The notes below the pieces were generated by a model. That model saw nothing but the letters and a program-made list of their open reading frames with translations. It did not search any database and had not been told where the DNA came from. Of a stretch of 64,000 nucleotides of DNA, positions 3,935 to 28,560 are shown one piece after another. This DNA comes from a virus, in IMG/VR virus record IMGVR_UViG_3300032722_000006, positions 81,284 through 145,283 of that record, one strand, 5' to 3'. Numbering within the stretch: the stretch's first letter is position 1; each line of letters starts with the position of its first letter. Both the position numbers and the translations under genes were made by a program.

Positions 3935-4007
3935 TGCCCCCGGAAGGAATTGCACCTTCGACATCCGGTTTCGAAGACCGGCGTTCTTTCTGCTGAACTA
4001 CGGGGGC
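3935..4007 (-). tRNA. tRNA-Arg(UCG)
   Basis: CCGGT-CTTCGAA-ACCGG. Confidence 0.9.
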
Positions 4008-4008
4008 G

Positions 4009-4356
4009 TGGGTGGTACGTAAGCGGGATTTTGTCTAGGATGATCATTCCTCTGTGATGTGTGTCACCACACATCTATAGCAACAACCCGCATGCTCGGG
4101 CGAACAGCCCTCAAACGCACACTGTTTGTCTTGCTCCGGGAGGGACCCCTTACCGTCTGCATTGCTGCATTCGTGGTGGGCTCTTACTCCACCGTTTCAC
4201 CATCACCTGATCCTCTTTTGTGAGGCCATCGGCTGTCTTTTCTCTGTTGAGTCTTCCGTCACCTTGCGATGCCCAGTCGTTAGCTGGTTCCCTGTTCTAT
4301 GGAGTCCCGACTTTCCTCTGCGCGTATAGTACGCAGCGATCATCTTTCTCCACCCC
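4009..4356 (-). ncRNA. rnpB: RNase P RNA (bacterial type A-like)
   Basis: GAGGAAAGTCGGGACT (CR-I), ACAGAGA, GGTGAAACGG..GTAAGAGC, GAGCAAG, ACAAAATCCCGCTTA (CR-V); about 350 nt. Confidence 0.92.
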
Positions 4357-4358
4357 TG

Positions 4359-5992: not shown

Positions 5993-6110
5993 CATCTCTT
6001 TCACCTGCATTCGATGGGACTCGAACCCATAAGCCTCGTCAGAGGCGCCAGCCTTTTTGTCGGCCCGCGTATGCCATTTCCGCCACGAATATTGATGGTT
6101 ACTTGAAACG
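5993..6110 (-). ncRNA. AGUA/GAA-clamp RNA, copy D, enclosing a degenerate Leu-type tRNA (6006-6091)
   Basis: CGTTTCa-AGTAACC..[tRNA-Leu-like, 8-nt loop GACAAAAA]..AGGTGAAA-GAGATG. Confidence 0.7.
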
Positions 6111-26481: not shown

Positions 26482-26700
26482 ATTTCGTATCAGTGCCGAC
26501 TCCTGGTGTTGAGCCAGGCCAATCCTCCTGTGACCGCTTCACATCACTGATTCGCAATGATTCGAGATCTCGGTGTGAATGCCGGCTGATGTAGCCGGTG
26601 GGTTTCGTCGCTCCCTCAATCGGCGTAAGATGCTGCTGACTCCCGGGAGGCGAACGCCTCCACTCGAGAGGCGTGAATTCGTCTCTCTAGGACTCAGCGG

Positions 26701-26773
26701 TGGAATTGAAGGGATTCGAACCCTCTACCTCCTGCATGCCGTGCAGGCGCTCTCCCAATTGAGCTACAATCCC
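26701..26773 (-). tRNA. tRNA-Ala(GGC), C33
   Basis: CCTGC-ACGGCAT-GCAGG; G3:U70. Confidence 0.9.
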
Positions 26774-26774
26774 G

Positions 26775-26851
26775 TGGACCCGGAGGGAGTCGAACCCTCA
26801 ATCACGTAGGTTCCATTGTCGGCTTTCCTATGTGACTCGCCTTTCAGGCCC
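26775..26851 (-). ncRNA. tmRNA tRNA-like-domain-like mini RNA (no ORF region)
   Basis: acceptor GGGCCTG/CGGGTCC with G3:U70, A73; stemless D region; 9-bp P2-like stem; T-arm GAGGG-TTCGACT-CCCTC. Confidence 0.65.
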
Positions 26852-26895
26852 TTTTACGCCGAGTGAAACACAACCGCACTGTGCCATGGCGTTAG

Positions 26896-26968
26896 TGGAA
26901 CTCACGGGATTCGAACCCGTCGCCTCCTGCGTGCAAAGCAGGCGCTCTCCCAAATGAGCTAGAGTCCC
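26896..26968 (-). tRNA. tRNA-Ala(UGC)
   Basis: CCTGC-TTTGCAC-GCAGG; G3:U70. Confidence 0.92.
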
Positions 26969-27003: not shown

Positions 27004-27759
27004 TTACTGTAAGCCTGCCTGTTGCGTGATCGTCTGAATCGCCGCTGTTCCCCTGACATTGGACATCCCAAGGTCGATGAGTACAAGCGTGCCGTCGTCT
27101 CTTTTCATCATGTTGCCGGCATGGTAGTCGTGAAAGTCAATGCCAAGTTCCGTGAGAGTCTCGAACAATCCCTTCACACCGTACTTCTTGACTAGGAGGC
27201 TCCACTGTTCGTTTGCGTGTGCGATGAACTTCTGCGCTTCAGGTGAGGTGAAAGACTTGAACTTCTTCTTTGCAGTTTCCTTGATGTGTTCCTTCGTGAG
27301 TTCCTTGACCTTGTCCCAGGAGCCTCCTGCACGTTTGACCCAAAGCGGAAATGCTGTCGTCACAAGTGCGTCATTAAACGATTTGCCTTCTTCTGCGCTG
27401 ATAGTTTGCAACTTTTCTTGCAGGATCGCGAATGTACCCGTGTCGCCTAGGCTCCATACGCCGTAAAAATTCACAACTCCGCTGACGTTCTTTCCCACGA
27501 GGATTGATGCTGCGTGCGCTTCTTTGCCGTCGTTCGTGACCTTGAGAACCTTGTCGCCTACCTCGAAAACTGTACCCCGCGTGCCCGTACCGATCGGTTG
27601 TAATGAATCAACGTCCTTGATTCCTAGTTTCGCCGCACCTTTCGGAAAGCGTTTGAGAAGTTCTTTCGCCTCATCGGGCGTCACGGGCTTGTTTTCCTTC
27701 GCCTCGAAAATGAGTGCCTCACGCACGAGTCGACGAAGACGTCCTAGCTTGATTCTCAT
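27004..27759 (-). CDS. protein kinase-like fold enzyme, late-motif class
   Basis: IGTGTRGTVF, VLKV, E, HDYHAGNMM, LIDLG; ATACTTA-N5-ATG. Confidence 0.85.
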   Translation of the reverse strand: MRIKLGRLRRLVREALIFEAKENKPVTPDEAKELLKRFPKGAAKLGIKDVDSLQPIGTGTRGTVFEVGDKVLKVTNDGKEAHAASILVGKNVSGVVNFYGVWSLGDTGTFAILQEKLQTISAEEGKSFNDALVTTAFPLWVKRAGGSWDKVKELTKEHIKETAKKKFKSFTSPEAQKFIAHANEQWSLLVKKYGVKGLFETLTELGIDFHDYHAGNMMKRDDGTLVLIDLGMSNVRGTAAIQTITQQAGLQ

Positions 27760-28310: not shown

Positions 28311-28333
28311 GCTAGATAGTACCCCACCCGTTG

Positions 28334-28403
28334 AGCCCAAGGTTGGAGTTGAACCAGCGACCTCCCAGTGGATACCGGGCGCTCTGCACTGAGCTACGTG
28401 GGC
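28334..28403 (-). tRNA. atypical tRNA-like gene (6-nt anticodon loop)
   Basis: CCCGG-TATCCA-CTGGG; D-loop lacks GG. Confidence 0.55.
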
Positions 28404-28405
28404 AG

Positions 28406-28479
28406 TTGCAAAGGAAGGGCTTTAACCTCCGACCTCCGGGCCATTACGCCCGGCGCTCTCTCTCCTGAGCTACTTCGCA
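28406..28479 (-). tRNA. atypical tRNA-like gene (8-nt anticodon loop)
   Basis: CCGGG-CGTAATGG-CCCGG; T-loop TTAAAGC. Confidence 0.55.
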
Positions 28480-28480
28480 G

Positions 28481-28553
28481 TGGGAAGGGAACGGATTGAA
28501 CGTCCGACCTGCGGGCTAAATGCCCGCTGCTCTTTCTCCTGAGCTACCTCCCC
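28481..28553 (-). tRNA. atypical tRNA-like gene (UUU, A33)
   Basis: GCGGG-CATTTAG-CCCGC. Confidence 0.55.
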
Positions 28554-28560
28554 ATAATCA

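Follow-up and report, generated by a model that had tools for sequence, protein, structure and literature searches.

The sequence analysed here, hereafter the window, is a stretch of 64,000 nucleotides that covers positions 81284-145283 of an IMG/VR viral contig of 145 kb with an estimated completeness of 39%. The contig is a fragment of a jumbo phage from freshwater, and the minus strand of the window carries 45 tRNA genes called by ARAGORN. Between two genes for alanine tRNAs we read directly from the sequence an RNA gene of 77 nt (26775-26851, minus strand). One of these neighbours, tRNA-Ala(UGC) (26895-26968, minus strand), lies 43 nt ahead of the element, and the other, tRNA-Ala(GGC) (26699-26773, minus strand), starts 1 nt past its end, with a single C (26774) between them. 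The gene, its coordinates and its flanking tRNA-Ala genes had been reported by a reading of the sequence alone (the sequence-only reading) and are correct. Many metagenome runs from lake water contain the same locus. Contigs of three independent runs span the element without differences, and independent lake-metagenome assemblies carry the identical sequence. Contigs from four lake or biocathode runs show no variants, so these runs offer no covariation at the level of populations. No consensus terminator was found between the element and its tRNA neighbours, and a scan for promoters and terminators gave counts no higher than those of shuffled sequences.

The tRNA array has other unusual components. 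A complete bacterial class A RNase P RNA (4004-4357, minus strand; 224 bits, model positions 1-367) sits flush between tRNA-Arg(tcg) and tRNA-Leu(caa); a limited literature search returned nothing obviously relevant on phage-encoded RNase P RNA. Three tRNA-shaped genes have abnormal anticodon loops (6006-6092, 28333-28403 and 28405-28479, all on the minus strand) and are reported by ARAGORN as 'tRNA-???' with 2-nt anticodons; the last two are also above the Rfam tRNA threshold. The 217-nt gap between tRNA-Asp and tRNA-Ala(GGC) (26482-26698, minus strand) has no call of a tRNA, of an Rfam family or of the covariance model R1 described below.

Structure of the element

The ends of the RNA form a 7-bp acceptor stem in which G3, the alanine identity base, stands opposite a U (26778; tRNA position 70). 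Its 5' strand (RNA 1-7, GGGCCUG) is encoded at 26845-26851 and its 3' strand, with the discriminator A73 (RNA 70-77), at 26775-26782; these and all the following parts are on the minus strand. Structural alignment places next a purine-rich D-loop without a stem (RNA 8-14, AAAGGCG, 26838-26844), which has the invariant GG and no 'UUCGAC' of tmRNA. A helix resembling P2/H2 follows: its 5' strand (RNA 15-25, 26827-26837) pairs with RNA 42-52 (26800-26810), with one mismatch at a conserved position (A·C), and a conserved cap closes it (RNA 26-41, 26811-26826). The T-arm (RNA 53-69, 26783-26799) has a 5-bp stem and the loop UUCGACU, and it corresponds to positions 347-363 of the Rfam tmRNA model.

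The MFE fold of the element returns the same three helices (-30.1 kcal/mol, z = -2.4), so that direct reading and folding both confirm the G3:U70/A73 acceptor, the long irregular stem and the canonical T-arm first described from the letters. Two details of that description need revision. The D region indeed has no stem, but the family alignment (see below) shows that its last two bases, AG, are pairable with the UU that had been taken for a 2-nt linker; with this pairing, the helix of the window element extends over 11 bp up to the T-stem, leaving a D-loop of 7 nt. The 16 nt at the tip of the helix, reported as a loop, are there as a cap, but are better read as an asymmetric internal loop (AAAG/AA) and a 3-bp mini-hairpin (CCG/UGG) with the tetraloop ACAA. 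The three pairs of this mini-hairpin are invariant or vary on one side only, and for this reason are unproven by covariation.

The element resembles tRNA-Ala by its G3:U70, its A73, its T-arm and its location in a tRNA array. Unlike tRNA-Ala, it has no anticodon, and two features of the tRNA cloverleaf (RF00005), the D stem and the anticodon stem with its 7-nt loop, are absent. No tRNA is called at the element by ARAGORN, by the Rfam tRNA model at its gathering threshold, or by Rfam at E-values up to 10.

A family of mini-RNAs in phages

We fetched related jumbo-phage loci using as anchor the gene of a 251-aa protein that lies inside the tRNA array of the window (27004-27759, minus strand) and has 54-61% identity in four related contigs. 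The homologue of this protein gene in the related contig L012 has no tRNAs called around it. The array of another relative includes a tRNA with the anticodon UUA (L009:5545-5620, plus strand; 'tRNA-Stop' according to ARAGORN), a putative ochre suppressor. In a 340-kb contig (L011), a homologue of the element lies between tRNA-Ala(CGC) and tRNA-Ala(UGC). The start of its D region and its cap match those of the window copy, and the sequence of its helix differs yet pairs.

A scan of IMG/VR with a pattern made of the cap and the T-arm gave 16 stretches, and a second scan, with five cap bases left free, gave 52; the exact 5'-end pattern had no match in the same database. Most of the 52 stretches are of a 78-nt form with the D-loop GGUUUCGAC and a helix ending in GGAC before the T-arm, which is the signature found in the Rfam tmRNA consensus. 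We call the copies that keep this signature canonical. BLAST identified the window-type element, unannotated, in at least 44 cultured Streptomyces phages of about 131-134 kb. In the Streptomyces phage LukeCage it lies between tRNA-Val and tRNA-Leu, and thus the alanine-type acceptor is no by-product of tRNA-Ala neighbours.

We aligned 38 distinct copies to the covariance model R1, which has an explicit structure and was built from 19 canonical copies only, with no window-type or DS6A sequences (see below) in its training. Modelled partners pair in 97.4% of the cells of the alignment, against 35-49% in controls in which the partners were slid, and 15 of the 23 pairs show changes on both sides. 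All eight modelled pairs of helix 2 covary, having changed on both sides across the family, and so do four of the five pairs of the T-stem. G1, G2 and G3 do not vary, and every member (38/38) has G3·U and A73; a C follows A73 in 37/38, and only 2/38 encode the CCA. The GG of the D-loop is invariant across the family. The cap is identical in all 14 window-type copies of the structural alignment, save for its last base (A or C), and does not differ between siphophages of Streptomyces and jumbo phages from freshwater. Window-type and canonical members have 'AAAGCC...GGA' in common, the canonical ones having come from a search pattern with five loop bases left free.

In a set of 185,579 bacterial species genomes, the window-type loop pattern had four matches, none with a TLD (tRNA-like domain) context, which corresponds to chance. 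The R1 model found no copy in 151 sampled genomes of one phylum, in a filtered search that is a weak test. A 91%-complete relative of the window phage, G002, has no mini copy, which means that the RNA is dispensable in some lineages. We considered a candidate relic in the syntenic gap of this genome and rejected it, the alignment being unconvincing.

The structural alignment separates a divergent, window-type branch in which the copies of the BE1 Streptomyces phages group with those of the window, L023, L011 and L022. The branch has the cap CCG-ACAA-UGG, against CCG-CACG-CGG in canonical members, and a shortened D-loop that has lost 'UUCGAC'. In three of these copies, from the window, L023 and L011, both G·A positions at the helix base have gone as well; the window copy has U-A and G·U in their place, next to a further A-U, and its helix runs straight into the T-stem. 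SmpB grips the elbow of the TLD and holds its single-stranded D-loop extended, and contacts between D-loop and T-loop are required (review PMC3968760). Set against these contacts, the changes in the D-loop and at the G·A positions make the binding of SmpB by the window-type branch uncertain, and the affinity of the window clade for SmpB may be low.

Relationship to tmRNA and to the DS6A RNA

With R1, the window copy scores 58.3 bits (E about 1e-13). Family members reach at least 49 bits, whereas the best tRNA in 643 kb of phage DNA has 31.8 bits and real tRNA-Ala genes do not exceed this value. A search with tmRNA models had been suggested as a check of the sequence-only reading, and its outcome depends on the copy. 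The gathering score of the Rfam tmRNA model (RF00023) is 47 bits. Canonical minis pass it with 51.6-67.8 bits, through their two ends only, the message and pseudoknot part being deleted (about 306 model positions). The DS6A RNA has 43.2 bits and close relatives of the window copy have 34.2 and 39.8 bits. The window copy itself gets 14.9 bits, less than a neighbouring true tRNA-Ala (22.8 bits), which makes this score uninformative alone. Among the features of tmRNA, the window copy has the G3:U70/A73 acceptor, the tRNA-type T-arm and the stemless D-loop with GG. It lacks the 'GGxUUCGAC' D-loop and the 'GAC...GGA(C)' tandem G·A platform of the Rfam consensus, a motif that canonical members and DS6A keep. 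The mRNA-like domain is also absent, only 16 nt separating the two strands of the helix. A low-scoring match to YrlA (RF02553; 30 bits, with 69 needed) spans the T-arm of the element and the D-arm of the next tRNA, and is an artefact of two adjacent genes.

An RNA of this kind has been published. An entry 'Mycobacterium phage DS6A (TLD only)' appears in Hudson, Lau & Williams 2014 (PMC4131195), and the gene is recorded in the tmRNA Website as tmID 11587 (JN698994 at 28478-28557). It scores 61.3 bits with R1, and in architecture and kind of cap its sequence matches the canonical minis from metagenomes. The window element is like the DS6A RNA in being phage-borne and about 80 nt long, with a G3:U70/A73 acceptor, a stemless D-loop with GG, a short P2 and a T-arm. 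Both lack a tag frame and a phage SmpB, and both have the same kind of cap, an A-rich bulge followed by a CCG...CGG mini-hairpin. Unlike the window copy, DS6A keeps the GGU..UCGAC D-loop and the G·A platform, and its cap tetraloop is CACG instead of ACAA. The phages also differ: the temperate DS6A has a genome of 60 kb, lacks a full tmRNA and has its mini gene outside any tRNA array, whereas the window lineage is that of a jumbo phage with tRNA arrays, whose relatives also have a full tmRNA.

In summary, the window copy has what characterises DS6A-type mini-tmRNAs, i.e., a phage gene of about 75-80 nt that scores with R1 well above tRNAs and has compensatory changes in its helices. We conclude that it is very probably a message-less mini-tmRNA descended from the TLD of tmRNA and a member of the same family as the 'TLD-only' RNA of DS6A. 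The proposal of a stand-alone, message-less tmRNA TLD therefore stands, through homology to DS6A and to minis that are above the Rfam tmRNA threshold. The window element is a homologue of a kind of RNA already described in a phage, a precedent that the sequence-only reading overlooked, citing only the message-less tmRNAs of protist organelles.

These organellar CDS-less tmRNAs are found in jakobid mitochondria and some plastids (Mallomonadaceae, about 65 bp; PMC11915505). By their description, they are like the window element in consisting of the tRNA-like part only, with no tag frame. Unlike it, they belong to a cellular lineage and their SmpB is nucleus-encoded. Relative to one-piece tmRNA (RF00023; BE1 phages, G001 and G002), the element has the same Ala-type acceptor, T-arm and D-loop GG, and its helix leaves the TLD at the place of the variable arm. 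One-piece tmRNAs are of 270-370 nt; the element, of 77 nt, has no pseudoknots, no resume codon with stop, and no tag. We also considered the cap as a mimic of the resume codon and rejected the idea: a 9-mer is common to the cap and the start of the G002 tag, but 122 of 2000 shuffles score as high. The resume regions of G001 and LukeCage have no match to the cap. No in-frame stop follows the cap GCC in 36 of the 38 copies.

Full-length tmRNA, SmpB and release factors in the same genomes

Window-type minis are found with a full-length tmRNA in 8/8 complete genomes (six BE1-like phages, LukeCage and G001), whereas canonical minis are found without one in 13/13 (five genomes of 111-119 kb, seven of 40-57 kb, and DS6A), where nothing else is tmRNA-like. 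The eight window-type genomes represent only two independent lineages, and the association between the type of mini and the presence of a full tmRNA is suggestive rather than proven. The contig of the window has no full tmRNA, and is only 39% complete. The relative G002 has a full tmRNA and no mini. The full-length tmRNAs of G001 (L073:93-452, tag ANDNGALPLRLAA) and LukeCage (L075:83-361, tag ANSNVASAYALAA), both co-resident with a mini, and that of G002 (L074:104-475, tag ANDNGVAPLALAA) are all one-piece. Those found alongside window-type minis encode an ...LAA tag.

No SmpB was found in six phage genomes, including the 99%-complete 340-kb relative, LukeCage and DS6A, which implies that any SmpB is that of the host. 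No phage Pth was found either. Two relatives, G001 (L076:572-1195, minus strand) and G003 (L077:594-1190, minus strand), encode truncated RF1-like proteins of roughly 200 aa that correspond to the C-terminal half, with the GGQ motif. Both are under every curated NCBIfam cut-off (RF1 176-187 bits, PrfH 82-90 bits). The truncated gene is absent from the contig of the window, from LukeCage and from BRock.

Possible functions

The window RNA is a conserved and structured homologue of the TLD, with intact alanine identity elements and no message. As to its role, we tentatively favour competitive interference with host tmRNA, i.e., with trans-translation, at a little less than an even chance. The mini-RNA would be transcribed with the surrounding tRNA array and freed by RNase P and 3' processing, the RNase P cut of the downstream tRNA-Ala(GGC) setting its 3' trailer. 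Its 3' end would be completed by the CCA-adding enzyme, and the host alanyl-tRNA synthetase (AlaRS) would then charge it via G3:U70/A73. These first steps are deduced from established tRNA and tmRNA biology. The Ala-TLD could next engage EF-Tu, host SmpB and the empty A site of stalled ribosomes, where it would supply neither a resume codon nor a degradation tag. The net effect would be a competition with host tmRNA that disturbs SsrA tagging in infected cells. A docking role is probable for the conserved cap.

An action on trans-translation is suggested by precedent. A molecule similar to the TLD-only RNA of DS6A is cited as a strong inhibitor of tmRNA, 'perhaps titrating SmpB' (PMC4131195), and the 2025 tmRNA database paper mentions inhibition of the endogenous E. 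coli tmRNA by the DS6A form (PMC11915505). Both papers cite Mao et al. 2009 for this result, which, as they give it, concerns the canonical DS6A-like form and not the window clade. Furthermore, the TLD alone, with SmpB and EF-Tu, docks on stalled ribosomes (PMC3968760). The idea of a simple SmpB sponge is nevertheless weakened for the window clade, because 'UUCGAC' and the tandem G·A are lost and because a co-resident phage tmRNA would need the same host SmpB: a sponge would also inhibit the phage's own full-length tmRNA (8/8 complete genomes). Given the eroded SmpB-binding signature, competition in the divergent branch may act more at AlaRS, EF-Tu or the ribosome than by titration of SmpB.

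The determinants that would serve interference (charging, T-arm and D-loop GG) would equally serve a tag-less rescue, which we consider unlikely. In that case the alanylated mini-TLD would enter stalled ribosomes with host SmpB, take over the nascent chain and add only alanine. The peptidyl-RNA would be resolved by a codon-independent release factor or by drop-off, and ribosomes would be freed for phage translation with products left unmarked for proteolysis. This is how the CDS-less tmRNAs that jakobid mitochondria and some plastids have kept together with SmpB are interpreted (PMC11915505), the close relatives G001 and G003 encode the RF1-like GGQ half-protein, and these phages also invest in a full tmRNA. 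However, there is no consistent partner, neither the truncated RF-like gene, with its patchy distribution, nor a phage Pth, and the SmpB signature is eroded in the window clade. Moreover, the sole experiment reported on such an RNA, as cited in the two papers above, showed inhibition.

Alternatively, the window-type RNA might be a re-purposed TLD that has become independent of SmpB, with the cap and the altered D-loop binding another partner. The partner might be a protein of the phage, a site on the ribosome, or a host factor attacking the acceptor ends of tRNA-Ala or tmRNA, for which the RNA would be a decoy; it would then act alongside the co-resident phage tmRNA and not against it. The perfect association in the searched genomes (8/8 with and 13/13 without a full tmRNA) and the loss of the D-loop 'UUC' and G·A platform, together with a cap that is invariant across siphophages and jumbo phages, point in this direction. 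Yet the eight genomes come from only two lineages, no partner gene is consistently adjacent (the flanks are tRNA-Ala here, tRNA-Val and tRNA-Leu in LukeCage), and the strict conservation of the AlaRS and T-loop determinants fits a role linked to translation. We regard this re-purposing as doubtful. It is also conceivable, if quite improbable, that the window-type mini is the second RNA of a phage two-RNA ribosome-rescue system, re-tuned off SmpB and working beside the full tmRNA. One possibility would be a template-free addition of alanine followed by release, in some jumbo phages with the truncated RF1-like GGQ protein; another would be that the cap docks a new partner.

A functionless, decaying tRNA-Ala pseudogene might be suspected from the two flanking tRNA-Ala genes and from relatives that have three tRNA-Ala genes where the window has two and the element. 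This is very hard to reconcile with homologues at non-Ala positions in unrelated phages, with helices that pair through many double changes while cap and identity bases are invariant, with the L011 locus, which has all three tRNA-Ala genes plus the element, and with the identical sequence in independent metagenomes. Recent decay from a tRNA-Ala, a doubt raised with the sequence-only reading itself, is thus excluded by conservation, with compensatory changes, across unrelated phages. The element is almost certainly not the acceptor piece of a two-piece (permuted) tmRNA with a coding piece elsewhere, even if part of the window's genome is missing: the gene is a collinear, hairpin-closed single molecule of 77 nt that begins with the 5' acceptor strand and ends with the T-arm and 3' strand, the complete one-piece tmRNAs of relatives have their own TLD, and in 13 complete genomes the mini is the only tmRNA-like RNA. 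The separate coding piece that had been suggested does not exist as such; what relatives have elsewhere in their genomes is a complete one-piece tmRNA.

Implications for phage tmRNA and its annotation

In the literature examined, the message-less form of phage tmRNA has so far been treated as a single curiosity, that of DS6A. What is new here is a widespread and unannotated family with a conserved cap, which includes at least 44 cultured Streptomyces phages, and within it a window-type branch that lacks the D-loop/G·A signature of tmRNA and co-occurs with a full phage tmRNA in 8/8 complete genomes. This conserved, structured family is missed by tRNA and tmRNA finders and by GenBank annotation, and dozens of the phages that carry it are cultured Streptomyces phages amenable to genetics. 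With two forms distributed according to whether a phage has a full tmRNA, the family offers a direct experimental handle on whether phages block, bypass or re-wire the ribosome rescue of their hosts. The results also correct existing annotations: the BE1 Streptomyces phages were counted as having 'one tmRNA' (PMC5764925) and have two tmRNA-derived genes. Among phages with canonical minis, the spot of the gene is without annotation in BRock, LuckySocke and Alone3, and in the Streptomyces phage GiJojo (PP725410.1, 17025-17102) it is overlain by a 'hypothetical protein' CDS, which is probably a mis-annotation.
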